Source: a virus | Taxonomy: Duplodnaviria; Heunggongvirae; Uroviricota; Caudoviricetes | Direction: 5' to 3' (one strand) | IMG/VR virus record: IMGVR_UViG_2534681675_000025 | Location: 1-57,091 of that record | DNA length: 57,091 nucleotides | Shown: positions 7,473 to 49,231 of the stretch, piece by piece | Numbering within the stretch: the first letter of the stretch is position 1 | How the letters are laid out: the number at the start of each line of letters is the position of its first letter | Translations under genes and position numbers: made by a program | Notes under the pieces: generated by a model | Database searches by the model: none | The model's input: the letters and a program-made list of their open reading frames with translations, nothing else | What the model was told of the DNA's origin: nothing

Positions 7473-8993
7473 TTATTCAGGCTTTAATTTATTGATAATA
7501 GAATCTACCATTTTAATGCCTGCCTCATTGACTATGACTGAATTGACTACTCTATCAAAATAGTCTTCTATATGGTGGGAAAATAGGAAAGCAGCACTTG
7601 ATGGTTTTTTGTTCTTTTCAACAGCAGATTGCAAGACTTCATGAGGCGGAATTTTAAACCTTTTGCATGATGCAATGAGATATTCAAACTCTTCAAATGA
7701 TAGACAAAAAATATTCTCTGTAGGGATATGATAGTTATGTTTAAACTTGTCATATATCTTATTCATCTCATCTTTAGCATAAGTATTAGCTAGGATACTA
7801 CCATTGCCTAAGAAAAGGTTTTTATATGTAATGCAAATGATATATGAGTTAGCCCTGAATGGAGCTATTATTCGCTCATTAGAGTATATTTCTCGATTAA
7901 CTTCGTGAGATTGTTCGATTGCTTTTAATACCGATTTCTTTATTTTTCCTGCAATATCCTCAGGGCGTAATGTTACCATGCCTTTTTGGTGTATCTCAAC
8001 GCCTTTAGCATCAATGAAAATATTTGCCTCAGTATGTGGAATGAAATAATCAACTACTTTATTATCTTTAGGTAGTCGTTCTTTAAGGTATTTTTCGTTA
8101 TGAAAATCAATTTCGCTTTCTTTTAGTATTAATTCCAGTGCATTTTCAAATACATTTCCAAAGCTATCCATGAACTTCTCGGCATCAGTTCTTCTTAAAA
8201 GATCATATATGAACGTCTGTATGCTTGTTGAAGTCAGTTGTGTGTGTATCTGAAAATACTCTGAACCTTTTTTTATTAATGGTTTTTCAAGGAAAGGTGA
8301 TGATGAGTAGTATTCAAGCAAAGGTTTATCATAGGTTTTTGATTTGCAAAATGTAGATAGTTCATTGTAATTTATTGATATTGCATCAAGAAATTTCTCA
8401 ATGGTATTTCTAGGAATGATGTCAAATAATATAGTAAATGTATCTACATTCATTTTTCTCACGGGATGCTCTTCTGTTATGTGAGTTATTAATATGTAAG
8501 ATAGCTTAAGAAAGTCTTCGATAGATACATTCGTGATAGTAAAAAAACTTGTCTTTATTTTATGGTTTTTTTCAAGTTCTGAAAATAGAAAGACTTGTCT
8601 GCTAATTGTGTTTAGAGCGTCAATTTTCTGGTAGATTCCTTGTTGGTATAGATTATTTCTAATGAAGAAATGCATGCCATTCTTCCTCTCAAGACCGATA
8701 GGAATAATGTTCAAGGTTTCATAAGTTTTTTGGAAGAGTTTTATTGCTTGATTTTTATCGAGGATTTTGAATTTTTTATTCTTGCCAGTTACTGACGCAG
8801 ACCACTTTAGACATAAATTAACAATCCAAGGCATGTGTCGTAACATGTGGATATTATCTTCAAATTTTTGTAAGTTATATTGCATACAGAATTCGATAAA
8901 TAAATCAGGGGAATAACCTTGGATTTCTGAACGAATAGCATCCATTCTTAACTTTGCAACCGCATCAGATTGAATATCTAATTTTTGAATCAC
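7473..8993 (-). CDS. Hypothetical protein, 506 aa, strongly AT-rich cargo gene between att remnant and int
   Basis: Long uninterrupted ORF; composition much more AT-rich than flanking phage genes; no motif I can recognise by eye. Confidence 0.7.
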   Translation of the reverse strand: MIQKLDIQSDAVAKLRMDAIRSEIQGYSPDLFIEFCMQYNLQKFEDNIHMLRHMPWIVNLCLKWSASVTGKNKKFKILDKNQAIKLFQKTYETLNIIPIGLERKNGMHFFIRNNLYQQGIYQKIDALNTISRQVFLFSELEKNHKIKTSFFTITNVSIEDFLKLSYILITHITEEHPVRKMNVDTFTILFDIIPRNTIEKFLDAISINYNELSTFCKSKTYDKPLLEYYSSSPFLEKPLIKKGSEYFQIHTQLTSTSIQTFIYDLLRRTDAEKFMDSFGNVFENALELILKESEIDFHNEKYLKERLPKDNKVVDYFIPHTEANIFIDAKGVEIHQKGMVTLRPEDIAGKIKKSVLKAIEQSHEVNREIYSNERIIAPFRANSYIICITYKNLFLGNGSILANTYAKDEMNKIYDKFKHNYHIPTENIFCLSFEEFEYLIASCKRFKIPPHEVLQSAVEKNKKPSSAAFLFSHHIEDYFDRVVNSVIVNEAGIKMVDSIINKLKPE

Positions 8994-13458: not shown

Positions 13459-15869
13459 GTCATGCCGATATGAACAACTGCTGCGGCTTTAACGAGGCTA
13501 CCGCAGCATTCTCATGGAACAGCCCGAAAAAGGCCATTAACCCTTATCTGGACCCGGCGGAAGTTGCGCCGGTTTCTGCGCTTTCAAACCTGATCACTCT
13601 GTACGCTGCCGATAACGAGCAGGAACAACTGCGCCGTGAGGCACTGAGTGATCAGGTCTGGGAGCGTTATTTCTTTAATGAATCCCGTGATCCTGTCCAG
13701 CGCGAAATGGAGCAGGATAAGCTAATTAGCCGGGCAAAGCTGGCGCATGAGCAGCAGCGTTTTAATCCAGACATGGTCATTCTGGCGGATGTCAACGCCC
13801 AGCCTTCCCATATCAGCAAGCCGCTGATGCAACGTATTAAATACTTCAGCAACCTGGGCAGGCCAAAGGCTTATTCCCGCTATTTGCGTGAGACGATTAA
13901 GCCATGCTTGGAACGACTGGAGCATGTACGCGACAGCCAGCTATCTGCATCTTTTCGTTTTATGGCAAGCCATGAAGGGCTGGACGGTCTGCTGATCCTG
14001 CCTGAAATGAGTCAGGATCAGGTGAAACGCCTGTCCACCCTTGTCGCTGCGCATATGAGCATGTGTCTTGATGCCGCTTGTGGTGATTTGTACGCCTCCG
14101 ATGATGTTAAGCCGGAAGAAATCCGCAAGACATGGGAAAAGGTGGCAGCAGAAACCCTGCGACTGGATGTCATACCGCCTGCGTTTGAGCAACTCCGCCG
14201 GAAAAGAAACCGCCGCAAACCTGTGCCCTATGAACTCATTCCGGGTTCGCTGGCGCGTATGCTGTGCGCCGACTGGTGGTATCGGAAATTATGGAAGATG
14301 CGTTGCGAATGGCGGGAAGAGCAGTTGCGTGCTGTCTGTCTGGTCAGCAAAAAAGCATCTCCCTATGTCAGCTATGAAGCCGTGATGCATAAACGTGAGC
14401 AGCGCCGTAAGTCGCTGGAGTTTTTCCGTTCTCATGAACTGGTGAACGAAGACGGCGACACGCTGGACATGGAGGATGTGGTAAACGCCAGCAGCAGCAA
14501 CCCTGCGCATCGCCGCAATGAGATGATGGCCTGTGTTAAAGGCCTGGAGCTTATCGCGGAAATACGCGGTGACTGCGCCGTTTTCTACACCATCACCTGT
14601 CCGTCACGTTTCCATTCCACGCTAAATAACGGCAGGCCCAACCCGACCTGGACAAATGCGACGGTAAGACAAAGCAGTGATTATCTGGTTGGCATGTTTG
14701 CTGCATTTCGTAAGGCGATGCACAAAGCCGGATTGCGCTGGTATGGCGTGCGGGTGGCTGAGCCGCATCATGACGGTACAGTTCACTGGCACCTGTTGTG
14801 TTTTATGCGCAAAAAAGATCGCCGCGCCATTACTGCTTTGTTGCGTAAGTTTGCCATTCGTGAAGACCGCGAGGAGCTGGGGAATAACACGGGACCACGC
14901 TTTAAGTCTGAGTTGATTAACCCGCGCAAAGGAACGCCGACAAGCTACATCGCGAAATATATCAGTAAGAACATTGACGGGCGTGGTCTGGCTGGCGAGA
15001 TCAGCAAGGAAACGGGTAAATCCCTGCGTGATAACGCTGAATACGTGAATGCCTGGGCGTCTCTGCATCGTGTTCAGCAATTCCGCTTCTTTGGCATTCC
15101 GGGGCGTCAGGCTTACCGTGAACTGCGATTGCTGGCTGGTCAGGCGGCAAGGCAACAGGGTGACAAAAAAGCAGGTGCGCCGGTACTGGATAACCCGCGC
15201 CTTGATGCAATCCTGGCTGCTGCTGATGCTGGTTGTTTTGCCACCTACATCATGAAGCAGGGCGGCGTACTGGTTCCCCGTAAATATCACCTCATCAGAA
15301 CCGCTTATGAAATCAACGAAGAGCCAACCGCCTATGGCGATCACGGTATTCGTATTTATGGCATCTGGTCACCCATTGCAGAGGGCAAGATCTGCACTCA
15401 TGCAGTGAAGTGGAAAATGGTTCGTAAGGCCGTTGACATTCAGGAGGCGGCAGCCGACCAGGGCGCTTGCGCCCCTTGGACTCGTGGCAATAACTGTCCC
15501 CTTGCTGAAAATTTGAACCAACAGGAGAAAGATAAATCAGCTGATGGGGGCCCCAGAACGGACTTTACCCGCATGGATGACAAGGAGTTGCACGATTACC
15601 TGCACAGTATGAACAAAAAGGGGCGCCGGGAACTGGCTGCAAGGTTACGTCTGGTGAAACCGAAACGGCGTAGAGACTACAAACAGCGAATTACAGACCA
15701 TCAACGACAGCAGCTCGTCTATGAACTGAAATCCAGAGGATTTGATGGCAGCGAGAAAGAGGTCGATTTACTCCTTCGCGGCGGCAGTATTCCGTCAGGA
15801 GCAGGCCTGCGTATCTTCTATCGGAACCAGCGTTTGCAGGAAGATGATAAGTGGCGGAACCTGTATTAA
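13455..15869 (+). CDS. A: Replication initiation endonuclease (P2 gene A family, rolling-circle initiator)
   Basis: 804 aa; conserved region [16 protein letters not shown] and HxH region HWHLLCF typical of P2/186 A proteins. Confidence 0.9.
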
Positions 15870-15962
15870 TTACGCTGGTTAACAATTCGTGCTCTTAATA
15901 ATACCAGGCATATCAGGCTGATAAGCGTAAAAAAAACGTTTTACATCAGTAAGATTATTATA

Positions 15963-15982
15963 TACTGTAAATATAAACAGTG
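15963..15982. promoter_or_regulatory. Candidate LexA (SOS) box upstream of the DinI-like module
   Basis: tactgtaaatataaacagtg = CTGT-N8-ACAG consensus, about 45 bp upstream of the 16024 ORF. Confidence 0.55.
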
Positions 15983-16023
15983 GTTATACATACAGCATTG
16001 CGTGTGGTGTCATAGGAGGAAAG

Positions 16024-16212
16024 ATGCAGGACTATTTTTTGGAGTCTTTGAAGCTCCAGCGCATTGATTTTTTTCTTAAGCTTGTAGCGGCTAGTGAGTG
16101 TAGTGATGAAGAGAAGGGGCTGGCTCTGCAGTGGGTTTCTGAATTGACTGATGAACTCATGGCAAAAATCAGAAGCCACGAATACAACCGCTCAATGGAT
16201 GTCATCAGCTGA
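16024..16212 (+). CDS. Hypothetical small protein, possibly Tum-like antirepressor N-terminal part
   Basis: 62-aa ORF downstream of the LexA box and immediately upstream of the DinI-like gene. Confidence 0.4.
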   Translation: MQDYFLESLKLQRIDFFLKLVAASECSDEEKGLALQWVSELTDELMAKIRSHEYNRSMDVIS

Positions 16213-16222
16213 GGTGACTTTT

Positions 16223-16456
16223 ATGCGCATTGAAATAATGATCGATAAAGAGCAGAAGATTAGCCAGTCTACCCTGGACGCCCTTGAATCCGAGCTTTAC
16301 CGCAATCTGCGCCCCCTGTATCCCAAAACGGTAATCCGTATCCGTAAAGGTAGCTCTAACGGTGTGGAACTGACCGGACTGCAACTGGACGAAGAAAGAA
16401 AACAAGTGATGAAAATTATGCAGAAGGTGTGGGAAGACGACAGCTGGCTGTATTGA
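16223..16456 (+). CDS. DinI-family protein
   Basis: 77 aa, MRIEIMIDKEQ...VWEDDSWLY, resembles DinI (MRIEVTI...WESADDWF). Confidence 0.75.
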   Translation: MRIEIMIDKEQKISQSTLDALESELYRNLRPLYPKTVIRIRKGSSNGVELTGLQLDEERKQVMKIMQKVWEDDSWLY

Positions 16457-16569
16457 TTTTGTCAATAGACGCTTGTTTTTACTAATCAAAAAGGGTTACA
16501 TATGAGTGAGAGGCGATGTCAATCAGATATCGCCTTGTTTTTTGTCAAGAAAAGAATAATAGGCTAAAA

Positions 16570-17247
16570 ATGAAAATTAATAATGTAGCGTTACCAATAT
16601 CTCTTGCTGTAATCCTAACTGGTTGCGTGCCACATGCTTCTAACCGAAATATCACTGCTATTGAAGTGGTGAAGCCTGCTATTGGGCAAAGTGCTACCGC
16701 CTACATGGGCGATCCCATTATCACATCTGCTACTGGATTTAAAACGGACGTACTAGAACTTGGTGCGGCTAATGGTGCATTGTCTTCTATCGCTGCTGGT
16801 ACATATTGCAGTGAGGGGAATGGAATTTACCGCAATTATCATAACCCTCAAGCTGTTGCGTTAAAAAATCTCTATGGGCAAATCGGTAACTATGTTGATT
16901 ATGTTAGTTACGATGCTGCAAAAAATGAGATATCACCGCCAAATGGTACTTCTTATACTGCATCAGAAATTTCTATCAAACGTGTTCCTGATGGGCTGTG
17001 TCGAGTTAGTAACTCATTGGTTAAGACTATCGAATACAATGGAAATGCAGGCGGTGTAATGAAGTTCACCTATCGTGAATTTGCAAACGATATGGCTCGT
17101 GCAGCATTTACAACAGATTTTTCTGTAGATTCTAAGGGAAGTGACGTTATCGCTTACAAAGGTGCCAAGTTCAAAGTGAACAAGGCTGATAACTCGTCTA
17201 TTTCTTATACAATTATTTCTGGCTTTGACAAGGCTGTCACGTTCTAG
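16570..17247 (+). CDS. Predicted lipoprotein, function unknown (cargo)
   Basis: MKINNVALPISLAVILTGC lipobox signal; 225 aa; lies between the replication gene and cos. Confidence 0.7.
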   Translation: MKINNVALPISLAVILTGCVPHASNRNITAIEVVKPAIGQSATAYMGDPIITSATGFKTDVLELGAANGALSSIAAGTYCSEGNGIYRNYHNPQAVALKNLYGQIGNYVDYVSYDAAKNEISPPNGTSYTASEISIKRVPDGLCRVSNSLVKTIEYNGNAGGVMKFTYREFANDMARAAFTTDFSVDSKGSDVIAYKGAKFKVNKADNSSISYTIISGFDKAVTF

Positions 17248-17350
17248 GTTTCACGCTTACTGAGTATGTTACGATTTTGCACATTCTGCATAAGCGCGCA
17301 TGTCTATGCTGCATGAGATCGCATGATCGTTTGAGGATCTTTTGTGTTAA

Positions 17351-17375
17351 GGCCCGCCAGTTCTGGCGGGCTTTT
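17351..17375 (+). terminator. Putative terminator after the lipoprotein gene
   Basis: ggcccgccag-ttc-tggcgggc stem followed by tttt. Confidence 0.5.
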
Positions 17376-17420
17376 GCGTAGATCATGCAGGTGCATGAAA
17401 ACCACTACATAAAGCGGGCA

Positions 17421-17439
17421 GGCGTGGCGGGGATACGAG
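17421..17439 (+). other. Candidate cos (cohesive end) site of prophage 1
   Basis: ggcgtggcggggatacgag followed by cgcgcgct; resembles the P2/186 cohesive-end sequence as I recall it (GGCGAGGCGGGGAAAGCAC then TGCGCGCT). Confidence 0.5.
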
Positions 17440-17549
17440 CGCGCGCTCATGGTTGAATTAATGAAATTATGGTGTTAAATAGGCTAGCTTTTTAAGTCGT
17501 GAATATTCAATTTTTCAACTCATTTTTTTCATAGGGAGGAGTAATTGAC

Positions 17550-18248
17550 ATGGTTATGTTAGTGGATGACTGTCCACGATGTGGATCACAAAAAATAGCG
17601 TTTGATGTTAATGGGCTGAATTGCACTAGGGTTTACAATGCATTGGGCGGGGGTAAAACATACGAGTACGAGGTCTATTGTGTTTGCCGAGAGTGTCATA
17701 AAACGACAATGTTTCTTTGCAGACCTTTAACGAAAAATAAAACTTTAGATGGCTATAATTGGGAAAGTGGAATATTCGGCTTAAAGGAAGTTGCAGAGGT
17801 TGTTAGGCCTATATCACCGGCAGACTTAGCAGTAGAGGAGCCACCAGAGTTCTTACCTGAGCATATCAATAGTGCATATGAGGAAGGGGCGAAATGTTTG
17901 GCTATAGGTTGTTATAATGCAGCAGCAACCATGTTTAGGCTTTGCCTTGATTATGCCACAAAAGGACTTCTTCCTGATGGGGAGCAAGGGCCTGCGCAAA
18001 AAATAAGGAGAAGCCTAGGGTTAAGAATGGAGTGGTTATTTGATAATCATCTACTGCCTGAAGCTTTAAGGGAACTAGCTGAATGCGTTAAAGATGACGG
18101 AAATGATGGAGCGCATGAAGGTATTTTGGATAAAGCTGCTGCTGAGGATCTTGAAGATTTTACCTATCTTTTTTTAGAACGGCTTTACACTGAACCTCAA
18201 CGCCTTATCGAAGCCAAGACAAGGCGTGAACAAAGAAGAAACAAATAA
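17550..18248 (+). CDS. Zinc-ribbon plus alpha-helical domain protein (possibly DUF4145-like), inserted between cos and Q
   Basis: 232 aa; N-terminal CPRCG...CVCRECH four-Cys ribbon; RBS gggagga before ATG; convergent with Q, 3' ends 8 bp apart. Confidence 0.7.
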   Translation: MVMLVDDCPRCGSQKIAFDVNGLNCTRVYNALGGGKTYEYEVYCVCRECHKTTMFLCRPLTKNKTLDGYNWESGIFGLKEVAEVVRPISPADLAVEEPPEFLPEHINSAYEEGAKCLAIGCYNAAATMFRLCLDYATKGLLPDGEQGPAQKIRRSLGLRMEWLFDNHLLPEALRELAECVKDDGNDGAHEGILDKAAAEDLEDFTYLFLERLYTEPQRLIEAKTRREQRRNK

Positions 18249-18256
18249 GTTCGGAA

Positions 18257-19294
18257 TTATTCTTCTGAAAGAATATAGGGCGTAAATTTAATCACTTCTT
18301 CGCCCAGCCAGTCGTTCAGCTCTTGTAGCCTTTTTTGCAAGGGAGTTAATTCATTACGTACAAATACGCGACTGGCCTTCTCCACATCCCCAAACCCTCC
18401 AACATTATTAGGCATAATCCCCATCATTTGCGGCGGCACGCGGTGCGCAGCCATCATGTCGTCGCGGCTGACATTTTTGATATTCAAAAACTCATCCTTC
18501 GCCGCGACTTCTGACAATGGGATGATCTGAAGCCCGTCTTTTTTGCCGTTAGGCGAGTACATAAACAGGTTGCGGAAGTTGCCTGGACCTTTGGCGCTTT
18601 TCATCGCATTGCGGAGGTTGTTCACATCCTCCTGGTTTTGCGCGGCATCGGTCATGTACATGATAAAGCCCGCATGACTGCCGTTAATGTAATACTTGCG
18701 ACGGAACAGCGTGGCGGACTCGTTGAGCAGGGCTGACGGAATGGCAGAAAGATAACCGGGCAGGCCGTAGATCTCCTGATTAATATCCGGTTCCATCAGA
18801 TGAAAAATGCTGCCTTTCGTGAACTGATACGGCTGGGTTGTCATACCGTATTGCACAAACCAGTAGGTATCCAGGTCTAACCCGCGTCGGGTGTATTTTG
18901 CCAGTGCAGGCTCAAGGGCGATAACTTCACCGAAGCGGTTCGTGCGTTTCTCCAGGTAGGCGTTACCAAAAACCAGATAGTCCTGCACAAAACGCGAAAA
19001 AGCCTGCTGGCTGAGCAGCGGGTGAGGGATGTAGGTGCTGGTCAGAATGTTGCACTTTACTGCAATCGGGGAACTATGATGCACGGCAGCGCGGAAGGTG
19101 CGCGCCAGTCCGTCAAAGCTGACGGGCGGCTCATACCAGCGGTCCATCTGTACGCATTCCACATAATCCAGCAGTTCTCGGCGGTCCAGAACAGGAACGG
19201 GATCGCCGAAGCTGAATGCTTCGGCTGTAGTTTGACTTTTAAGCTGGATCTGTTTCGTCGCCGCAGCGCGGTTCTTCTTACTCTTTCCCATCAA
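18257..19294 (-). CDS. Q: Portal protein (P2 gpQ family)
   Basis: 345 aa, P2 Q-like sequence and position next to terminase P. Confidence 0.9.
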   Translation of the reverse strand: MMGKSKKNRAAATKQIQLKSQTTAEAFSFGDPVPVLDRRELLDYVECVQMDRWYEPPVSFDGLARTFRAAVHHSSPIAVKCNILTSTYIPHPLLSQQAFSRFVQDYLVFGNAYLEKRTNRFGEVIALEPALAKYTRRGLDLDTYWFVQYGMTTQPYQFTKGSIFHLMEPDINQEIYGLPGYLSAIPSALLNESATLFRRKYYINGSHAGFIMYMTDAAQNQEDVNNLRNAMKSAKGPGNFRNLFMYSPNGKKDGLQIIPLSEVAAKDEFLNIKNVSRDDMMAAHRVPPQMMGIMPNNVGGFGDVEKASRVFVRNELTPLQKRLQELNDWLGEEVIKFTPYILSEE

Positions 19295-29098: not shown

Positions 29099-29696
29099 TC
29101 TGCTGCCACCGGGTTCAACTTCACTGGAGCGCCGACTGGCGCAAACCTGTAGCGGGATTTCTGATCTGCAGGTGCCGCTGCGTGACTTGTGGAATCCGGC
29201 TACCTGTCCGGTCAGCTTCCTGCCTTATCTCGCCTGGGCGTTCTCTGTGGATCGCTGGGACGAGGGCTGGACAGAAAGCGTCAAACGCCAGGTAGTGAAG
29301 GATGCTTTTTATATTCATCAGCATAAAGGAACTACCAGTGCCGTGCGGCGGGTGGTGGAACCGTTCGGATTCCTGATCCGCATTATTGAGTGGTGGCAGA
29401 CCGGAGAAACACCGGGCACGTTTCGCCTGGATATCGGCGTGCAGGACCAGGGCATCACTGAAGATACCTATCTGGAACTTGAGCGGCTGATAAGCGATGC
29501 CAAACCATGTAGCCGTCACATGATCGGCATGTCCATCAATCTGCAGACCAGCGGTCCGCATTGGGTGGGGGCCGCCAGCTATCTTGGCGAAGAAATCACG
29601 ATCTATCCGTATATCAACGAAACAATTATTTCCGGCGGCACCGCGCATGAAGGCGGGGCGGTCCATGTTATTGACACAATGAGAGTGAATCCATGA
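29091..29696 (+). CDS. I: Baseplate protein (P2 gpI family)
   Basis: 201 aa, begins MNSLLPPGSTSLERRL. Confidence 0.85.
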   Translation: MNSLLPPGSTSLERRLAQTCSGISDLQVPLRDLWNPATCPVSFLPYLAWAFSVDRWDEGWTESVKRQVVKDAFYIHQHKGTTSAVRRVVEPFGFLIRIIEWWQTGETPGTFRLDIGVQDQGITEDTYLELERLISDAKPCSRHMIGMSINLQTSGPHWVGAASYLGEEITIYPYINETIISGGTAHEGGAVHVIDTMRVNP

Positions 29697-31210
29697 GCAC
29701 AAAATTTTATACCCTGCTGACGGATATTGGCGCGGCGAAACTTGCCAGCGCCGCCGCGCTCGGTGTGCCGCTAAAAATTACCCATATGGCGGTGGGCGAT
29801 GGCGGCGGAACATTGCCAACGCCGGACGCCAAGCAGACAGCATTGGTAAATGAGAAACGCCGGGCTGCGCTGAATATGCTCTATATCGACCCGCAGAACA
29901 GCAGCCAGATTATTGCTGAACAGGTGATCCCTGAAAACGAGGGCGGTTGGTGGATACGTGAAGTGGGCCTGTTTGATGAGTCCGGGGCATTGATTGCCGT
30001 GGGCAACTGCCCGGAAAGCTATAAGCCGCAACTGGCTGAAGGCAGCGGGCGTACCCAGACCGTGCGCATGGTGCTGATTACCAGCAGCACGGACAATATC
30101 ACCCTGAAAATCGACCCTGCCGTAGTGCTGGCAACCCGCAAGTATGTGGATGACAAGGTACTGGAGCTGAAGGTGTACGTGGATGATCAGATGGCAAAAC
30201 ATCTTGCCGCACCGGACCCGCATTCACAGTATGCACCCAAAGAAAGTCCGACGTTTACCGGGACACCAAAAGCGCCAACTCCAGCGGCAGGGAATAACAC
30301 CACGCAGGTTGCGACCACCGCGTTTGTTCAGGCGGCACTGACGGCTCTTATTAATGGTGCGCCAGCCACGCTGGACACGCTGAAAGAAATAGCCGCAGCC
30401 ATTAACAATGATCCGAATTTCAGTACCACCATTAACAATGCGCTGGCACTGAAAGCGCCGTTGTCGAGTCCGGCACTCACCGGAACGCCAACAGCCCCCA
30501 CTGCTGCACAGTCGGTCAACAATACACAGATTGCCACCACGGCTTTTGTGAAATCGGCGATTGCAGCAATGGTAGGTTCTGCACCTGCGGCACTGGATAC
30601 ACTGAACGAACTGGCGTCGGCGTTGGGGAATGATCCGAACTTTGCCACGACAATGCTTAATGCGCTGGCAGGTAAACAACCGCTGGACAATACGCTGACT
30701 AATTTGAGTGGAAAGGATGTCGCTGGTCTTCTCGCATACCTTGGTTTGGGAGAAGGTGCTCCAGCTATTGGCGTTCCGTTCTTCTGGCCGTCCGCCGCAA
30801 TGCCAGATACCGTAATCGAAAGCTGGTCCGGCATGGTGTTTTTGAAGTTCAACGGCGCGAAATTCTCTGCCACTGATTACCCTGTGCTGGCGAAAGTGTT
30901 TCCTTCGCTGGTATTACCTGAAGCCCGCGGTGATTTCATTCGTATCTGGGATGATGGCCGTGGTGTTGATAGTGGCCGTGCGTTACTTTCCGCGCAATCA
31001 GACGATTTCAAAACGCACGAGCATAAAATTTTAGGGCTAAATGGAAGTGGCAGTAATGTAGTGTTTGGCACCGTTTCGAATGCTTCTCCATTATATACCA
31101 GCGGCGTTAGTCAGCCGGGTGGAAGTGCTTTGCCCGCTTTTCAAAACCCAGGCGGTACTGAAACGCGTCCCCGTAACATCGCATTCAACTTTTTAGTAAG
31201 GGCTAAATAA
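29693..31210 (+). CDS. H: Tail fibre protein (P2 gpH family)
   Basis: 505 aa; conserved N-terminus; internal repeats of the LDTLxELAxALGNDPNF motif. Confidence 0.85.
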   Translation: MSTKFYTLLTDIGAAKLASAAALGVPLKITHMAVGDGGGTLPTPDAKQTALVNEKRRAALNMLYIDPQNSSQIIAEQVIPENEGGWWIREVGLFDESGALIAVGNCPESYKPQLAEGSGRTQTVRMVLITSSTDNITLKIDPAVVLATRKYVDDKVLELKVYVDDQMAKHLAAPDPHSQYAPKESPTFTGTPKAPTPAAGNNTTQVATTAFVQAALTALINGAPATLDTLKEIAAAINNDPNFSTTINNALALKAPLSSPALTGTPTAPTAAQSVNNTQIATTAFVKSAIAAMVGSAPAALDTLNELASALGNDPNFATTMLNALAGKQPLDNTLTNLSGKDVAGLLAYLGLGEGAPAIGVPFFWPSAAMPDTVIESWSGMVFLKFNGAKFSATDYPVLAKVFPSLVLPEARGDFIRIWDDGRGVDSGRALLSAQSDDFKTHEHKILGLNGSGSNVVFGTVSNASPLYTSGVSQPGGSALPAFQNPGGTETRPRNIAFNFLVRAK

Positions 31211-31803
31211 TGAAACCTGTTTTTGATGAAAATGGACTGGCTACAGTGCCGGGTGATATGCGTTGTTTTTATTATGATGCAGTAACGTATGAATATACGG
31301 GCTGGTCTGATGAATATATTAATACTGGTATAAGTATGCCCGCCTGTTCCACTGGTATTGACCCTGGCGAAAACATTCCGGGAAAAGTGGCTGTATTTAC
31401 AGGTAAGGGATGGAGCCATGAAGAGGACCATCGCAATGAGACTGTTTACTCAATCGAAAATGGCGCAGCTGTTACAGTGGATTATATCGGTGCCATCAAA
31501 AACGGTTATGTCACGCTTTCACCGTTAACGCCATATGATAAATGGGATGGTGAGAAATGGGTGACAGATACTGAGGCACAACACGGTGCCGCAGTAGAAG
31601 CGGCAGAAGCACAGCGTCAGCCACTGATTGATGCTGCAATGGCTTCCATCAGTCTGATTCAGCTGAAATTACAGGCCGGGCGGAAGCTGACGCAGGCAGA
31701 AACCACCCGGCTTAACGCCGTGCTTGATTACATTGACGCGGTGACGGCAACAGATACGAGCACCGCTCCGGATGTCATCTGGCCTGAACTGCCGGAGGCG
31801 TAG
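31210..31803 (+). CDS. G: Tail fibre assembly protein (P2 gpG family)
   Basis: 197 aa, start overlaps H stop. Confidence 0.8.
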   Translation: MKPVFDENGLATVPGDMRCFYYDAVTYEYTGWSDEYINTGISMPACSTGIDPGENIPGKVAVFTGKGWSHEEDHRNETVYSIENGAAVTVDYIGAIKNGYVTLSPLTPYDKWDGEKWVTDTEAQHGAAVEAAEAQRQPLIDAAMASISLIQLKLQAGRKLTQAETTRLNAVLDYIDAVTATDTSTAPDVIWPELPEA

Positions 31804-32209
31804 GCCATTCAATATCTGGAGCACTGGAGGTATCAACCAGTTCCAGTGCGTCCAGATAATCCAGCCACAAATTATATTGCGCCAGTTCCTCACCTTTCAG
31901 ACGACCAATAGCCGCTTTACCAGGCCATTGCTTGGTATTCATATATTCGTTGGACTGATTAATCAATTGCTGTTTTTTCAATTCGGCTGCGGCAATCTGT
32001 TCCTCATGTGTTGGTGGTGGAATTTCAGACCATGCAGGAAAACCATTTTCCCCAGCGATACGGATTTTTCCTTTCGGCGGTAATCCGGAAAACTCAATAT
32101 ACACCTGCTCATCAACTTCAACAGCATCATCTGGCCATGAATTTACATTGATGTAGTCATCCTTAAGCGCAGGATTCACAAAAATATTTAAAGATGGACT
32201 AAAAAACAC
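31775..32209 (-). CDS. G: Tail fibre assembly protein (gpG family), prophage 2
   Basis: 144 aa; Tfa-like C-terminus; 3' end overlaps prophage 1 G by 29 bp, convergent. Confidence 0.75.
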   Translation of the reverse strand: MFFSPSLNIFVNPALKDDYINVNSWPDDAVEVDEQVYIEFSGLPPKGKIRIAGENGFPAWSEIPPPTHEEQIAAAELKKQQLINQSNEYMNTKQWPGKAAIGRLKGEELAQYNLWLDYLDALELVDTSSAPDIEWPTPPAVQAR

Positions 32210-32210
32210 A

Positions 32211-33692
32211 TCACCCTCCTATAGCAACATAACAGCCCGATACAGGATTTGCGGCAGTCGCTACGCTGGAAAAACCACGAAAGCCGCTTTTTGTGATTGC
32301 GGAGGCAGATAGTATTCCGGCACCCGAAGGTGTATGCCCCACGTGGCTGGCAACCATCACGTAGCACGCCGACGGAAAAGCGAAAGGGAAATTGTTTAAA
32401 TATCCCGCATCATCCCCCAGACTTCCCCCAAACTGCCCCACTCCCCACTGGATAATAAGTGGTCTCCGAACGCCAGAAATAATTAATGGAATTGCTACAT
32501 ACCCATTCACCAACATAGCGCCGGTTGTTGCGCCAGCCAGAGCCAATTCCCCCAAACCAAGGTAATCAAGAACTCCCTGAGTGCTGGTTTTACCAAGAAT
32601 GGCACGTCCAACACTTGTCAACGCGGTTAACGCGGCACGATCTGCCCCTGTAAAATATGGGAGTTTATCTGCTGATGTAGCAAGCTCCGCCAGCGCCGTC
32701 AGGGTGGCATCCTTCGGTTGCTTACCCGCAAGCGCGTTAGTCATGGTGGTCGCAAAATTCGGGTCATTGCCCAGCGCCGCAGCCAGTTCGTTCAGCGTGT
32801 TCAGTGCATCAGGTGACGAATCTACAAGTGCGGCAATCGCGGCCATAACGAAAGCCGTGCTTGCGATCTGGGTACTATTAGTCCCCTGTGGCGCTGTTGG
32901 TGTTGTTGGCGTTCCGGTCAGTGCCGGGCTGTTTAATGGTGCTTTCTTGCTCGTTTCATCCATTACCGCCTTAACAGCTTTTGGTGTCGCTGCCAGCGTT
33001 TCAGACGTGCTGTTCGTGGCGCTACTGAGCTGAACAATCCCTTTTTGTGTAGTGGTGGCGTTCTGGGCGGTATATTTCCCGTTAGCCAGGTCATATGCAG
33101 CCTTAACCGCTTTCGGTGTTGCGGCCAGTGTTTCTGATTCACTGTTAATTGCACTGCTTAACTGAGTAAAACCTTTTACGGTCAGCGAGGCGTCCGGGTG
33201 ACGTCGTGACTGTTCGTGCTCTGATATTTTATCATCCACATATTTGCGGGTTGCCAGAACCACAGACGGGTCGATTTTCAGCGTGATGGCTTCGGTGTTC
33301 GTGACAACCAGAATCATGCGGATAGTCTGGGTGCGTCCACTGCCTTCCTGCAACTGCGGTTTGTACGTTTCCGGGCAGTTTGCCACCGCAATGAGTACAC
33401 CTTCATCATCATAAAGCCCAATCTCACGGATCCAGAATCCTCCCTCGTTTTCAGGGATGATTTGCTCCGCAATAATCTGGCTCTGATTGTTAGGGTCAAC
33501 ACTCAGAAGATTCAGCGGTGCAATGCGTTTCTGGTTAATCAGTTTTGTTTGTGCAGGGTCTGGTGTTGGTAACACACCATTTGCATCACCAACGGCCATT
33601 TGCGTCAGATTCAGCTTACTGCCGAGCATCGTCGCGTTAGCCAGTCGTGCCGCGCCCTGATTAGTCAGAATGGCGTAGTATTTCACTGTCAT
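32211..33692 (-). CDS. H: Tail fibre protein (gpH family), prophage 2
   Basis: 493 aa; N-terminus homologous to prophage 1 H; contains LNTLNELAAALGNDPNFATT motif. Confidence 0.85.
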   Translation of the reverse strand: MTVKYYAILTNQGAARLANATMLGSKLNLTQMAVGDANGVLPTPDPAQTKLINQKRIAPLNLLSVDPNNQSQIIAEQIIPENEGGFWIREIGLYDDEGVLIAVANCPETYKPQLQEGSGRTQTIRMILVVTNTEAITLKIDPSVVLATRKYVDDKISEHEQSRRHPDASLTVKGFTQLSSAINSESETLAATPKAVKAAYDLANGKYTAQNATTTQKGIVQLSSATNSTSETLAATPKAVKAVMDETSKKAPLNSPALTGTPTTPTAPQGTNSTQIASTAFVMAAIAALVDSSPDALNTLNELAAALGNDPNFATTMTNALAGKQPKDATLTALAELATSADKLPYFTGADRAALTALTSVGRAILGKTSTQGVLDYLGLGELALAGATTGAMLVNGYVAIPLIISGVRRPLIIQWGVGQFGGSLGDDAGYLNNFPFAFPSACYVMVASHVGHTPSGAGILSASAITKSGFRGFSSVATAANPVSGCYVAIGG

Positions 33693-44974: not shown

Positions 44975-44990
44975 TGGGGCTGTCCTTTTT
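44962..44990. terminator. Bidirectional hairpin between convergent Q and the adjacent inserted gene
   Basis: acagcccc-gtga-tggggctgt stem flanked by an A-run and a T-run; Q stop codon lies in the loop. Confidence 0.5.
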
Positions 44991-45513
44991 ACCAGAGTTG
45001 AACCATTTTCTGGGTGCCGTCAGGCTTGAGATTATCAATTTCAGAGAGAACGTAATATTGAATGGCTTCACAAACGGTGGTGTATGGTGAATTACCTTCT
45101 TTAAGTGGCACGATATTATTATTAACGCGAACCTGTATTTCATCGTTATACATTGCGATCGAAAGAGGAGTATGCACGAACGCGACTTCGCCAGGTGTGT
45201 CGTCAACCACTGTCTCAATGCTGAAAATCAGTTTTCGCTCATCATTGCTGCCTCTTGCTTTGGGGGTTGCGGCAGGAATCTGGGATAAAGGCATTCTGCG
45301 AAATCCTTCGGCCGTTTCCAGTCCGCATGAAACGTAATGCTGGCGATTACCGTCGATATCTGTCCACGTTTGTGACGGCAGATCCAGCGAGATTTCATAA
45401 GCATCAACAATTCCCTGGGCAAGGCGTACAAGCGGGGTCAGGTCTTCATTGCGGCGAAAGCTCTCCTTTACCTGCTCTCGTTTTTCTCTTAACTGCTTGT
45501 AATTAATGACCAT
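44989..45513 (-). CDS. Hypothetical protein inserted next to Q (convergent), prophage 2
   Basis: ATG at 45513 preceded by GGAGG; about 174 aa; no recognisable motif. Confidence 0.6.
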   Translation of the reverse strand: MVINYKQLREKREQVKESFRRNEDLTPLVRLAQGIVDAYEISLDLPSQTWTDIDGNRQHYVSCGLETAEGFRRMPLSQIPAATPKARGSNDERKLIFSIETVVDDTPGEVAFVHTPLSIAMYNDEIQVRVNNNIVPLKEGNSPYTTVCEAIQYYVLSEIDNLKPDGTQKMVQLW

Positions 45514-46010
45514 AAGACAGCCTCCATTGATTTCTTTGCTCGTATTTTGCACTTATGAAGTGTGGTCGGCAAGGTGCCGTATCGCTGACGCGCTTCGCTT
45601 GTCTGCTGCTTCGCCGGGGCATAAAAAATTTATGCCCCGACTCTCCAGCTCCTGTATCAATCAGATAATTTCACGACGTCTTCCAACTTATCGCCATCAT
45701 CGACGGCCAGACTCTTACGCAATCCCATCGCGCTGATAGCATGTTCTCACTGCCTCAGTGCGATTTTGACGGCCTTATCTGTTATCCCATCAAATCAGAC
45801 CCCTTACGTCTTTTTCACGCTCAGCGTGAGCGATACAGCCATTCTGTTGTGTCACTGCGACATCGTTCAGGGAATGCTATCCCCCCCCTGAAACGCGGGC
45901 TGTTCCCCCGTCACCTGCGCGCAGAAAAAACGCGTTTTTTTGTGCACGCACGGATCCTTGACGGATCCAGCCGCCACGGGGGCCGGAAGGGCAAAAAGTC
46001 GTTCAAAAAA

Positions 46011-46040
46011 ATTGTGCAAATTTGTGCACTATTGTGCATT
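46011..46040. repeat. Three TTGTGCA half-site repeats at about 10-bp spacing (candidate operator or packaging-recognition repeats)
   Basis: attgtgcaaatttgtgcactattgtgcatt; followed by a hairpin (aaacgccctggaagagggcgtttt, 46043-46068). Confidence 0.4.
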
Positions 46041-46078
46041 AAAATAAACGCCCTGGAAGAGGGCGTTTTGGCTCATTT

Positions 46079-46339
46079 CTATAGCTTTGATGCAGGCTGG
46101 GCTAGATGCAAGGGTTGGACATACCAGCCTTTTGATAACCAACTCTCTGCAACCTCTTTACTCCTTGTTATTGCTGGTATTCCGATGCCGTTATTTACAT
46201 GCATCCATGCTACTGGCTCTGCTTCCAGTGATGCCAGTGCAATTTCATAAGCACGGCGCTCAATATTGTCTCGAACGTCCAGGCTGCCTATGCGCTCTTT
46301 GATTTCTTTAATCAGTTCTTTGTCGGTGAAAGTTGTCAT
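46079..46339 (-). CDS. Hypothetical protein
   Basis: 86-aa ORF in the operon downstream of A. Confidence 0.5.
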   Translation of the reverse strand: MTTFTDKELIKEIKERIGSLDVRDNIERRAYEIALASLEAEPVAWMHVNNGIGIPAITRSKEVAESWLSKGWYVQPLHLAQPASKL

Positions 46340-46349
46340 GTGTTAGTCC

Positions 46350-46613
46350 TTATCCTGCTGTGCTTTCAACTGATGAGGGGAACAAAATCTTTTCATCAAA
46401 CCCTGCATTCATATCATGAACAGCAACACACCAATCCATTGACGAACGATTATCAAGAGCCTCCATGATTTCATCCATGCGGCGCAGGTCATACAGGTAA
46501 ATGCTTTTATCGCCAATGGTGTAAAAACCAATTTTTTTCGGTGATGGGCAGCGATCAAGAACGTCCTGTAATTCATTCAACCATGCCCGTTCTTTTTTTG
46601 TTAAAGTTGCCAT
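46350..46613 (-). CDS. Hypothetical protein
   Basis: 87-aa ORF, translationally coupled to the upstream gene. Confidence 0.5.
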   Translation of the reverse strand: MATLTKKERAWLNELQDVLDRCPSPKKIGFYTIGDKSIYLYDLRRMDEIMEALDNRSSMDWCVAVHDMNAGFDEKILFPSSVESTAG

Positions 46614-46614
46614 A

Positions 46615-47106
46615 TCACTCTCCTTTGATGCGAATGCCAGTGGTACTCATTCTCCTGATTTCCCAGAGCACACGAGGAACACCACCGTTTCCGACCGGAT
46701 CGCGTTTACTCCGCAGGGCGACGCTTGATTCCGCCCAGCTTTTTCTTGGAGGAAGCTCTTTCACACGAACAAAACCAGCTGCGCGAAGAGATGCTCCTGA
46801 TTCATCTGCCTGGGTGTACGTAATACAACGTTGATAACCCATAGCTTTTGCTGCCCGCCAGACAGCACCATAAAGCGCGCTGTTAGCGTTGCGTTCTCCT
46901 GTGGTACATGTGCGATTTACTTCAAGCGTTAATCCATCGTCCAAATGTCGTGCAACAGGTCGACCGGCTGTCGCCACACCTATCAATTCTCCGGCATCAT
47001 TTCTCAGACCAATGCTGAATTTATGCCCCACCGGGGGTTTATTGTGTCGGTGATGTCTGGATATAAACGCCTTCGCAACACGAAGAGTAACCGGTGAAAT
47101 TTGCAT
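46615..47106 (-). CDS. Hypothetical protein; start taken at MQISPVTL
   Basis: ATG at 47106 preceded by AAGGAGAG and overlapping the upstream stop. Confidence 0.5.
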   Translation of the reverse strand: MQISPVTLRVAKAFISRHHRHNKPPVGHKFSIGLRNDAGELIGVATAGRPVARHLDDGLTLEVNRTCTTGERNANSALYGAVWRAAKAMGYQRCITYTQADESGASLRAAGFVRVKELPPRKSWAESSVALRSKRDPVGNGGVPRVLWEIRRMSTTGIRIKGE

Positions 47107-47108
47107 TC

Positions 47109-47423
47109 TCACTCTCCTTTGATGCCAATGTTTACAGTCTGGCAAGCTTCTCTGAGCACCCAGTCAACAGCGTCTTTCCATGCTCCGGTTTCGGTTGGCG
47201 GATTCTCACGCTTTACCAGTTCATAGAAACGTACTGCTCTAACCAGTCCATCTGACGGTTTTGCCTGTAGTGCAGCCTGAGCTATACGGTATGCCTGGAG
47301 CATACGGGCGTCGTTGATATCCATTCCGAACGGAATTTCTGATGATCGTGATTCTGCATCTTCAAGCCTGGCAATTTCTTTACGTAAAAAGTATTTCAAC
47401 TCTTGTTTTTGTTTTCTGTTCAT
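47109..47423 (-). CDS. Hypothetical protein
   Basis: 104-aa ORF. Confidence 0.5.
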
Positions 47424-47752
47424 GTGTTTTTTCCCTTTTTGTCTGCCACTTCTCTCCTGATAATTTCATTGCACAAATCCACGCACTCATTGCAGATGTA
47501 AACAGACGGTCCAGCAATCACCTTTGTGACTTCGTACTGGGATTTATTGCAGAAGCTGCAATAAATCGTTTCCTCGCCTGAAGCCCATGTTTTGCTGGTT
47601 TTGCCAGACATCAGTTGTTTGAGGTCTTTTTCACGACGAAGAACTATCTGGCCACATTCAGCTATTTTTTGGATGTTGACATTTTCTTCTTGCGCCAGCG
47701 CTTCCATCCGCTCAATCAGTCGCTGCGCTTTTTCTCTGTCAATGTGTTGCAT
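47420..47752 (-). CDS. Small protein with ClpX-type C4 zinc-binding domain at C-terminus
   Basis: [39 protein letters not shown] closely resembles the ClpX N-terminal zinc-binding domain (recalled as [39 protein letters not shown]). Confidence 0.65.
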
Positions 47753-47815
47753 TGTGTCCCCCTTGTTTATGTTCCCGGGTTAAAGTCATCAGGGCGGATG
47801 CGCCCTGATGTTGTG

Positions 47816-48127
47816 TTATTCGGGAAATAACGCCCGGATATTTCCGGCCATCTGACTGGTTATCTGTGCGGTTGGTGCTGGCTGTGACACGGGGCGTTCT
47901 GTCCTGGTTTGTGTCAGGGATAACGCTTCATCGTCAGCCCATGCAGCCAGTCGGTAAGCCTCTGCCGGATTAATTTTCATAAGTGCCAGTCCGGCCAGAA
48001 AAGCCACACGTTGACCACTTTTGCGGGCTTCTGGTGTAAGGCTGTCCAGCCAGGCGCATGCTTTGCCTTCGTTCTTGACGGCGGCGGGCTTCAGATAGAA
48101 ACTTATCCGTCTGGTTGGTGTCGTCAT
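47816..48127 (-). CDS. parR: ParR-like ribbon-helix-helix partition adaptor
   Basis: Start ATG 48127 after AAGGAG, overlapping parM stop; RRISFYLKP...LDSLTPEARKSGQRVAFLAGLAL parallels plasmid R1 ParR (RTIAFKLNP...LDSIPQGERSRLNRAALTAGLAL). Confidence 0.65.
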   Translation of the reverse strand: MTTPTRRISFYLKPAAVKNEGKACAWLDSLTPEARKSGQRVAFLAGLALMKINPAEAYRLAAWADDEALSLTQTRTERPVSQPAPTAQITSQMAGNIRALFPE

Positions 48128-48131
48128 TGGT

Positions 48132-49091
48132 TTACTCCTTGTCCATTGCGTACAGCCCATTAACCAGAGCAAACTGTGGCACCCCGTCCGCGATGAAAGT
48201 CGCATTAACTCCGCAGGCTTCGCGGATAGCGGGTGCCACAATCTCCGCCCCGCCACCGACAACCATCACCCGCCCGTAACCCGAAAAACCCGCCAGCGCG
48301 CGGATCACGCGTTGTTTCAGTGTTTCTTCCTTTTCACGAATAACCGCCATCAGGCTGTTGTAATGCGCGTCATTGTGGATGTGCTGGCGCAGCCAGGCTT
48401 CATCATGGCGATGTTCGATAATGGTATTGGCGATGTGGTGACTGGTACGCATACCGTTAGTGGCCATCACCGACAGTACGGCATCGGCCATCAGGGAAAC
48501 GCCTACGTGTGGATCGCAAAACACCTGGCTGATACCTGCCAGTTGTCCCTGAACCTTTGCCACATCCAGCGTGGTTCCGCCTAAATCCACAATCAGCAGG
48601 GATTCAAACGGACTCATGTCAGCCAGTGCTTTAAAGCCAGCCGGAATGGATTCAGGCATAACCCGCACGTTACGGATAGTGAATGCCTCACCGTTCTGGT
48701 ACTCCACCGGGCGCATAACGTTCGCTTTTTTGCGGTTGATGTTGGCCATGTCCGGCTGTGCGTTTGTGTCGAAATACTCGCTCAGTGGCAGGGTGACAAC
48801 CACATCCACCTCCTGTGGTGTGATGCCTGATTTGACCAGCGCGTGGTGAATGGCGATTACATTCACATCGCTGTACTGGTATTGCGTGTCGGTCGTCTGG
48901 ACAAAGCGATCGCTGACCGGATCAAAACCATAGCGCACGCCATCAAGCATGTAGTTCGCAGGCTGCGAGCCACCGAACGGCGCAGACCATTCCGACTTGA
49001 AGCTGTTCGGGCTGATGGCGTTGCGGCGTTCGCTGTTCTCAGTCCATGCCAGCTTGATGTTGGTGGAGCCGTCGTCGATACAAATTTTCAT
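48132..49091 (-). CDS. parM: ParM/StbA-like actin-type segregation ATPase
   Basis: 319 aa; MKICIDDGSTNIKLAW..., SDVNVIAIHHAL, IRNVRVMPESIPAG, LLIVDLGGTTLD, VMVVGGGAE match plasmid R1 ParM throughout. Confidence 0.85.
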   Translation of the reverse strand: MKICIDDGSTNIKLAWTENSERRNAISPNSFKSEWSAPFGGSQPANYMLDGVRYGFDPVSDRFVQTTDTQYQYSDVNVIAIHHALVKSGITPQEVDVVVTLPLSEYFDTNAQPDMANINRKKANVMRPVEYQNGEAFTIRNVRVMPESIPAGFKALADMSPFESLLIVDLGGTTLDVAKVQGQLAGISQVFCDPHVGVSLMADAVLSVMATNGMRTSHHIANTIIEHRHDEAWLRQHIHNDAHYNSLMAVIREKEETLKQRVIRALAGFSGYGRVMVVGGGAEIVAPAIREACGVNATFIADGVPQFALVNGLYAMDKE

Positions 49092-49120
49092 GTCGCTTTT
49101 CCTTATGTTGATTAATTAAT

Positions 49121-49231
49121 CGTTTACGGGGTTTTTAAATCCCGTTTTTGCCTGTTTTATGCGCGCTTCATATATCGCGGCGCGTTTTTTGCTCATTTAC
49201 GGGATTTGTGAATCCCGTTTCTGTCTGTTTT
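49121..49231. repeat. Two 38-bp repeat units each containing an 8-bp-arm palindrome (ACGGGRTT-N4-AATCCCGT), upstream of parM; candidate parC-like centromere
   Basis: Units at 49121-49158 and 49194-49231 (cgtttacggggtttttaaatcccgtttttgcctgtttt and catttacgggatttgtgaatcccgtttctgtctgtttt). Confidence 0.45.

Follow-up and report, generated by a model that had tools for sequence, protein, structure and literature searches.

The locus examined here raises the question of what an exported protein is doing in the cargo region of a P2-like prophage. The DNA analyzed, called the window throughout, is a stretch of 57,091 nt from a virus of the class Caudoviricetes (IMG/VR record IMGVR_UViG_2534681675_000025, positions 1 to 57,091), and the gene in question lies on its plus strand at 16570-17247, between the gene of the replication endonuclease gpA and the cos site. 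An original prediction had read the product as a 225-aa lipoprotein occupying the position of the P2 old/tin accessory genes and had suggested a role in superinfection exclusion through masking or modification of receptors. Our analysis showed that the product carries the features of a lipoprotein sorted to the outer membrane, namely a signal peptide, an LTGC lipobox, Cys19 and no Asp at position +2, and that the gene is accessory, optional and dispensable for the phage. As for its function, we tentatively propose a stand-alone envelope factor that may exclude heterologous phages, an explanation in which our confidence is low and which has to be weighed against several others.

A 243-aa open reading frame (ORF) spans 16516-17247 (+), and an internal ATG at 16570 gives the 225-aa protein (MKINNVALPISLAVILTGC...). 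The internal start was preferred because homologues begin to align at the Met encoded at 16570, the E. coli counterpart is a 678-nt gene in RefSeq, and the ATG at 16516 is buried within a stable hairpin (16510-16536); the longer, 243-aa reading was rejected on the same grounds. The N-terminus of the protein, MK-INNVALPISLAVI-LTG-C, with cleavage predicted before the Cys, shows a positive n-region (Lys2), a hydrophobic core and the lipobox L-T-G-C ending in Cys19, in agreement with the bacterial-lipoprotein pattern [LVI][ASTVI][GAS]C, and has Val at +2. According to the Lol sorting rule of Enterobacteriaceae, an Asp at +2 after the lipidated Cys leads to retention in the inner membrane; with Val at this position, outer-membrane anchoring is therefore predicted. 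The claim of a 225-aa lipoprotein with a clear lipobox was thus borne out by the start at ATG 16570, the LTGC motif with its Cys19 and the invariance of G18 and C19.

Between gene copies that are 79-96% identical, the ratio of nonsynonymous to synonymous substitution rates (dN/dS) was 0.04-0.09, with the strongest constraint in the middle and C-terminal parts (0.02-0.05). Diversifying selection in the variable middle region was also considered and rejected, dN/dS there being 0.02-0.04. The protein matched PHROG 1353, a family of unknown function, over its full length (E = 3.1e-105, residues 1-223 vs. profile positions 1-230 of 230), and a profile search returned 2434 related clusters (at 50% identity) at E ≤ 1e-3, 1256 of them at E ≤ 1e-10. 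On this sequence evidence, the low dN/dS, the full-length PHROG match and the number of related clusters, the ORF is a real gene under strong purifying selection and not a chance ORF.

No homology had been recognized in the original prediction; homologues proved to be plentiful, though none of those in PHROG 1353 or the 2434 clusters is characterized. Scanned against Pfam (TraT and Lambda_Bor families included) and PADLOC 2.0, the protein matched 0 families at E ≤ 1 in either; NCBIfam yielded nothing significant, and literature searches found no functional study of STM2726, its accessions or PHROG 1353. STM2726 is the Salmonella prophage Fels-2 counterpart, to which the protein is 99% identical; the value is 98.7% for Salmonella phage RE2010 and 100% for 24 Klebsiella P2-like phage records from sequence types ST258, ST11, ST512 and other clones. 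Among 50,697 phage records, 33 contained a match to the lipoprotein, and P2 and 186 were not among them. At the DNA level the gene is 100% identical to the E. coli HS copy (ECHS_RS25360, WP_000700647.1), which sits in the same gpA to portal context. As HS has a single P2-like prophage, DuoHS, this copy belongs to DuoHS. The Fels-2 STM2726, DuoHS ECHS_RS25360 and PHROG 1353 entries thus represent the same protein in the same order (gpA, small ORF, DinI-like gene, lipoprotein gene, cos), with nothing of substance different between the copies, which are annotated as hypothetical or "lipoprotein". Of 5426 complete E. coli genomes, 54 contain the gene, and the exact protein occurs on at least 1000 contigs, mainly of K. 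pneumoniae and Salmonella, named there only "hypothetical protein" or "Lipoprotein". Through a clustering artefact, the lipoprotein shares its 90%-identity cluster with many IlvE aminotransferases, one of which is the representative.

Members of the wider family are mostly 210-240 aa long and nearly all are secreted. The strict lipobox pattern was passed by 135 of 165 relatives, and Asp at +2 was found in none of these 135. Ten distant members scanned against Pfam gave no match, and no informative names occur in the family. Cys19 is invariant across 110 homologues. Conservation is seen in an N-terminal motif (P36, G47) and in a C-terminal module (Y156, G158, Y168-R169-E170-F171, R177, D187, Y196-K197-G198-A199, N208, Y213, F219), while the middle part is variable in sequence. 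Enterobacterial members share C80 and C144, both conserved in 22 close homologues; the two cysteines probably form a disulfide and would fit the oxidizing periplasm.

An AlphaFold model computed with the 110 homologues reached a pLDDT of 85.8, exceeding 90 over most of the mature domain, and displayed 17 beta strands and a disordered tether (~residues 20-30). The same topology had been obtained in an earlier model built from 22 sequences. The predicted mature protein has a compact domain of ~195 residues, all-beta in structure, on a short flexible tether. Foldseek found no convincing relative in the PDB (best E 0.04, TM ≤ 0.19) and no match in BFVD at E ≤ 0.001, and profile searches of PDB sequences with close and broad alignments gave chance matches only (E ≥ 0.67); "no known fold" refers here to solved structures and BFVD. 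Of the homology and structure searches that the original prediction had recommended, the first was productive, and the second returned no convincing structural relative from either collection.

The features surrounding the gene are listed in Table 1. The gene order is A, tum/dinI, lipoprotein gene, cos, a variable slot and Q, in a prophage of the 186/Fels-2 type with its integrase, CI-type repressor, CII, Dam methylase and gpA, and placement of the gene between the replication gene and cos, at the P2 old/tin position, was correctly foreseen. The cos assignment is based on a block that is conserved even where the lipoprotein gene is only 79-88% identical, with similarity ending at 17448. Its cohesive end shares 18 of 19 positions with the published end of Smp131 and 13 of 19 with that of P2, and the motif GGCGNGGCGGGG has a single match across the whole window, at cos.

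Table 1. Positions of the lipoprotein gene and of neighboring features in the window, from gpA to the portal gene.
Feature	Position	Strand	Evidence and remarks
Replication endonuclease gpA, 804 aa	13455-15869	+	88-100% identical to gpA in P2-like viral contigs; so named in matching E. coli and Fels-2 records; left-hand limit of the accessory region
LexA (SOS) box TACTGTAAATATAAACAGTG	15963-15982	+	CTGT-N8-ACAG at 15965-15980, 44 nt 5′ of the ATG at 16024
62-aa ORF opening the SOS operon	16024-16212	+	phrog_698, E = 6e-38
DinI-like gene (TumB in PsP3)	16223-16456	+	Pfam DinI, E = 1e-22; phrog_189; Fels-2 annotation: DinI family, similar to PsP3 TumB
Hairpin with T-run	16510-16546	+	11-bp stem (16510-16536), then GTTTTTTG; -17.1 kcal/mol, z = -3.6
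Lipoprotein gene, 225 aa	16570-17247	+	PHROG 1353 match; dN/dS 0.04-0.09; AlphaFold pLDDT 85.8
Signal peptide and lipobox MKINNVALPISLAVILTG-C	16570-16626	+	G18/C19 invariant in 22 close homologues
Lipoprotein layout			Signal peptide, residues 1-18; predicted lipidated Cys19; flexible tether, ~20-30; all-beta domain, ~31-220
Conserved cos region, ~150 bp	17298-17448		19-nt cohesive end GGCGTGGCGGGGATACGAG at 17421-17439
GC-rich hairpin terminator 3′ of the lipoprotein gene	17349-17379	+	GGCCCGCCAG-TTCT-CTGGCGGGC, then TTTTG; hairpin 17349-17374; -23 kcal/mol, z = -4.6
Zinc-ribbon and DUF4145 protein	17550-18248	+	Pfam DUF4145, E = 4.5e-7; PADLOC PD-T7-4, E = 1.2e-6; weak phrog_1305 match
Portal protein gpQ, 345 aa	18257-19294	-	Matching records name it phage portal protein; right-hand limit of the accessory region

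The lipoprotein gene thus lies inside the gpA-gpQ hotspot defined for P2-like prophages (PMC9122126, PMC9519451; Rousset et al., 2022; Vassallo et al., 2022). We observed that this hotspot is really two slots, one from A to cos (the right genome end) and one from cos to Q (the left end). In 50 lipoprotein-carrying P2-like loci the order gpA, 62-aa ORF, DinI-like gene and lipoprotein gene is fixed. The cos-Q stretch of the same loci ranges from ~0.3 to 3.4 kb, comprises 39 protein families and includes AbiU (in Fels-2 too), ShosA, bSEFIR, NsnA, AbiLi, PDC-M03 and PDC-M11. The true hypervariable defence hotspot is therefore the cos-Q slot, across cos from the lipoprotein gene; the A-cos slot is exchangeable yet far less variable. 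Its flanks are shared by 1282 E. coli genomes, compared with the 54 that have the lipoprotein gene, and other occupants in the E. coli relatives examined are an HNH endonuclease, a 433-aa protein and a pair of 86-aa and 203-aa proteins. The accessory status of the lipoprotein gene follows from these other genes held in the slot by related prophages and from the lack of a match in P2 and 186. An accessory-slot lipoprotein at the old/tin position, as originally proposed, is upheld by these data, whereas masking of the phage's own receptor is disfavored (see below). P2 old/tin cargo shares with our gene the position between gene A and cos, its optional nature and a base composition unlike that of the core. 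Old is a nuclease/ATPase and Tin poisons T-even replication; both are cytoplasmic, whereas the window protein is predicted to be exported and lipidated and has no sequence similarity to them.

We also considered whether the lipoprotein and the adjacent DUF4145 protein form a two-gene system. By same-strand tblastn a DUF4145 gene was found 3′ of the lipoprotein gene in three loci (L002, L028 and L060), and when the slot proteins were clustered, these neighbors all fell into one 232-aa family (3 of 50 loci). The two-gene system was rejected, as cos lies between the genes, adjacency is limited to 3 of 50 loci and many E. coli carry the DUF4145 gene alone. The DUF4145 gene, an independent module, is by its weak match to PD-T7-4 a candidate stand-alone defence gene.

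Upstream of the lipoprotein gene, the LexA box, the 62-aa ORF and the DinI-like gene constitute an SOS antirepressor (Tum) module of the 186/Fels-2 type. The 62-aa ORF, always directly 5′ of the DinI-like gene in P2-like loci, is probably the Tum-type antirepressor partner, and DuoHS has been described with a LexA-controlled tum gene. Given the perfect LexA box and the Tum module, the prophage should be inducible by DNA damage, unlike P2 itself. The hairpin that follows is either the terminator of the tum/dinI operon or an attenuator before the lipoprotein gene; in a diverged relative (L040) a C:G pair of its stem is replaced by U:A with pairing kept. Only 24 nt separate its T-run from the lipoprotein ATG. 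The GC-rich terminator downstream is kept in all P2-like loci aligned.

Expression data exist for the Fels-2 copy. In S. Typhimurium TA100 (Fels-2+), a microarray showed all three genes of the predicted STM2726-STM2727-STM2728 operon to be up 2.6- to 14.8-fold (p values between 0.01 and 3e-5) once the cells had been exposed for 30 min to MX, a mutagen that induces SOS, and this was the sole Fels-2 operon in the MX-induced list (PMC2225428). The LexA box, the short gap after the hairpin and this induction together suggest that the lipoprotein gene is transcribed by read-through from the SOS promoter. The candidate for an own promoter in the window is a 9/12 match whose -10 element overlaps the start codon; plausible own promoters are found in the 79%-identical clade and in a K. 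pneumoniae island copy.

The "morons" of Hendrix and colleagues are autonomous gene modules located between core phage genes. The lipoprotein gene resembles these in being a single gene, flanked by hairpins that supply a downstream terminator and insulation from neighboring operons, present or absent in close relatives and found in different slots of different phages. Its base composition is also moron-like, with a GC content of 39-43% over 15750-18300 vs. 52-58% in the core (gpA and the terminase gene). An own promoter, expected of a moron, is not evident in this clade, and transcription seems coupled to the upstream SOS operon.

The genomic contexts of the family extend well beyond P2-like phages. 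Of the IMG/VR contigs with a relative (n = 180), 80 loci were retrieved, of which 58 extended far enough downstream for assessment; in 52 of these 58, an ORF of 600 aa or more started within 2.5 kb downstream. In Acinetobacter prophages the homologue is located just upstream of the tape-measure gene, one tape-measure protein having a lytic transglycosylase domain. Prophages of the Moraxellaceae type (L089-L168, L067-L070, L080) keep the place upstream of the tape-measure gene constant across 50-94% identity, while the upstream neighbors vary (DUF3800, DUF4760, a toxin-antitoxin pair); this fixed position may indicate a link to tape-measure function or simply a favored insertion site. A Moraxella phage has the homologue in the tail region and another enterobacterial phage type upstream of the terminase gene.

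Further homologues were found with an integrase and a DUF3987 protein in a satellite-like Psychrobacter island, with two serine recombinases and a putative AbiC in a K. pneumoniae island, and in an array resembling integron cassettes in Vibrio parahaemolyticus. In Halomonas the homologue adjoins a type IV restriction-like HNH protein and PDC-S06, in Methylotuvimicrobium it adjoins insertion sequences, and in Erwinia it has an ordinary chromosomal setting. About 1 kb 3′ of the homologue, Erwinia sp. S63 encodes a protein of 141 aa that carries a TolA C-terminal domain (L005, 9669-10094, -); this could reflect a Tol link or be coincidental. A 25%-identical member sits stably between nrdA and nrdB in many assemblies of Neisseria subflava (399 index blocks; L063-L066, 7001-7678), being either a fixed chromosomal gene with a housekeeping role or the product of an insertion hot spot. 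The family is thus a self-sufficient single-gene module, mostly mobile and often adjoining defence genes, that moves among unrelated phages, satellite-like islands and an integron-like cassette array, with at least five kinds of mobile context.

We propose, tentatively, that the lipoprotein works alone in the envelope and protects the cell or the resident phage by excluding heterologous phages. Support comes from the defence genes in the neighboring cos-Q slot of P2-like phages and close to copies of the family in other elements (a putative AbiC, PDC-S06). The near-identity of the protein across E. coli, Salmonella and Klebsiella phages, together with purifying selection, argues for a target conserved among these hosts, and the protein would accordingly be expected to bind something conserved across enterobacterial hosts. 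Entry of heterologous phages might be blocked by occlusion of a protein receptor from the periplasmic side; alternatively, ejected tail-tip or tape-measure machinery might be intercepted in the periplasm, and the phage's own lipopolysaccharide (LPS) receptor would be left unmasked. If the SOS promoter contributes at least some of the transcripts, by reading through a leaky hairpin, the lipoprotein level would rise at prophage induction, when repressor immunity is lost. Most catalogued anti-phage systems are cytoplasmic, and envelope-acting single-gene cargo is under-sampled, since screens often discard adsorption-altering clones and recognizable domains are absent.

Several observations speak against exclusion of heterologous phages. 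The case is built on genomic association, which is its main weakness, as the protein has no PADLOC, Pfam or solved-structure match. Strong purifying selection and the lack of a fast-evolving patch are unusual for an arms-race interface with phage proteins. The alternative A-cos cargo (the HNH, 433-aa and 86-aa plus 203-aa proteins) had no PADLOC match either, so that the slot is not demonstrably a defence slot, and cargo near cos in P2-like phages is not always defensive, the cytotoxin gene ctx of phiCTX lying there. An own promoter is weak or absent in this clade and expression in a quiescent lysogen is thus not implied; the stable nrdA-nrdB copy of Neisseria subflava could mean a housekeeping envelope role; and DuoHS lysogens with the identical gene are not protected from DuoHS adsorption (PMC13622650).

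In a wider formulation, which we consider doubtful, the protein would be the founding, testable member of a large, structurally new family of envelope lipoproteins, carried as single-gene cassettes by phages, satellites, recombinase islands and integrons. Such lipoproteins might bind a conserved component of the envelope and thereby guard the cell against the entry of phages or against toxins active in the periplasm; in this prophage the protein would be deployed on SOS induction.

The next explanation, conversion of host fitness or virulence, holds that an outer-membrane lipoprotein changes how the lysogen adheres, resists serum or tolerates envelope stress. Bor of lambda and TraT of plasmids are likewise outer-membrane lipoproteins carried by mobile elements as conversion genes; both confer serum resistance or surface exclusion, and TraT is similar in size to the window protein. 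Such a role would agree with outer-membrane-type cargo carried by a temperate phage of pathogens, the exact protein being known from at least 1000 contigs (mainly K. pneumoniae and Salmonella), as it would with high conservation under purifying selection with no arms-race signature and the chromosomal copy fixed in Neisseria subflava. The window protein differs from Bor and TraT in lacking a Pfam match at E ≤ 1 (both families included) and in its predicted all-beta fold, which has no PDB relative. A serum role makes no sense for the homologues in environmental Psychrobacter, Halomonas and Methylotuvimicrobium or in Vibrio cassette arrays, and SOS-linked expression is odd for a colonization factor. 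Host-fitness conversion is on balance unlikely.

Periplasmic lipoproteins include many type VI immunity proteins as well as the lysozyme inhibitors MliC and PliC, and immunity genes that occur as orphans are mobile. An orphan immunity or inhibitor cassette directed against periplasm-acting toxins (type VI effectors, bacteriocins, tailocins, lysozymes, transglycosylases) would fit the occurrence of a single gene in an integron-like array, in islands and in phages. The invariant polar cluster R169, E170, R177, D187, K197 and N208 could form a binding surface, and the Acinetobacter homologue beside tape-measure genes, one of which encodes a lytic transglycosylase domain, points in the same direction. 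Against this, no cognate toxin gene was adjacent in any context examined, and there was no sequence or fold likeness to known immunity or inhibitor families, which leaves toxin immunity rather improbable.

The layout of the operon brings to mind a further role, in which the protein assists the induction cycle of its own phage: made at the time of the SOS response, it could act in the envelope to prepare lysis or release or to limit the loss of progeny on debris. A LexA box heading the operon directly upstream, small genes, a leaky terminator and then a lipoprotein gene resemble colicin operons with their lysis lipoprotein, and the 24 nt between T-run and ATG leave little room for an own promoter. 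The induction of all of STM2726-STM2728 by an SOS mutagen is consistent with this timing, and the Moraxellaceae homologues are within the late tail operon. However, P2, 186 and most relatives lack the gene, so that lysis and release can do without it; the lysis genes of the P2 type are found at another place in the late operon, and the protein is about six times larger than colicin lysis proteins. Non-phage copies have no induction cycle to help. Moreover, DuoHS virions remain trapped on capsule-less lysogens and debris, so that re-adsorption is not prevented (PMC13622650). Taken together, these points make an induction helper quite unlikely.

Exclusion lipoproteins of the kind that mask a receptor, in the narrow form of the originally suggested idea, are known from T5 (Llp) and from phi80 and N15 (Cor); with Ltp of Streptococcus phage TP-J34 they are, like our protein, phage-encoded envelope lipoproteins. 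The presence of Moraxellaceae homologues in tail modules might speak for masking of the phage's own receptor. P2-like phages use LPS. Phages whose lipoprotein is 99-100% identical to ours match the window tail fibre only over residues 1-343, with residues 344-505 unmatched; the receptor-binding C-terminal third of the fibre differs among phages with an identical lipoprotein, which does not co-vary with the receptor-binding protein. DuoHS recognizes the O9 O-antigen as its receptor, and its lysogens, when capsule-less, still adsorb DuoHS virions heavily and die by lysis from without (PMC13622650). Since tail-fibre tips vary and lysogens with a DNA-identical gene still adsorb DuoHS, own-receptor masking is disfavored, for adsorption largely refuted, and as a whole very unlikely. 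In these two respects, co-variation and a block of own-phage adsorption, the protein is unlike Llp and Cor, and it is also about three times larger than they are, with no sequence similarity to them (no Pfam match, and PHROG 1353 as the only strong PHROG match): 206 mature residues compare with roughly 60-140 for Llp, Cor and Ltp. Like Ltp, the protein might act once adsorption has taken place, against the incoming tail machinery. Finally, we give next to no credence to a structural virion protein or a part of a lysis cassette, for which nothing specific speaks beyond some homologues among tail genes, as the Sec/Lsp signal with its lipobox directs the product to the envelope and is unfit for cytoplasmic virion assembly, and the gene is outside the late operons, absent from most P2-like phages and found also in non-phage islands and chromosomes.

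The gene itself was already present in databases as a hypothetical protein, and a lipoprotein encoded by a prophage moron is a familiar kind of cargo. The family is uncharacterized, large (2434 clusters) and without a Pfam entry or a solved structural relative. An identical protein occurs in epidemic K. pneumoniae clones (ST258, ST11, ST512) and in E. coli HS DuoHS, and a near-identical one in Salmonella Fels-2. If the lipoprotein alters phage susceptibility, this would have a bearing on Klebsiella phage therapy; if it has no effect on phages, it would still illustrate cleanly how a prophage converts the envelope of its host cell in an SOS-linked manner. A direct test is feasible, as both DuoHS (in E. 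coli HS) and Fels-2 (in LT2) are tractable as lysogens.

The remainder of the window contains a second P2-family prophage. Two prophage halves, each with its own integrase, gpA, portal and terminase genes, meet tail fibre to tail fibre (29693-33692, junction at ~31775-31803): H and G (+, 29693-31803) converge on G′ and H′ (-, 31775-33692), and their 3′ ends overlap by ~28 bp. Genes for tail sheath, tube, D and ogr were identified for neither half among the ORFs annotated, which are not all of those present. The arrangement points either to an artefact of assembly or to two prophages having recombined with an inversion as the outcome. The A-Q region of the second prophage (44989-49168) measures ~4.2 kb and has at least seven ORFs of 104-319 aa; those scanned gave no PADLOC match, two of them (44989-45552 and 45741-46250) gave no Pfam match, and the cos-like motif GGCGNGGCGGGG was not found in this prophage. 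The second gpA (49168-52020) is long, with 950 aa vs. 804 aa in the first, and its Phage_GPA domain covers only residues 194-513. At the prophage edge, a 506-aa ORF with no Pfam or PADLOC match (7473-8993, -) adjoins the integrase and could be further cargo at the attachment-site end.

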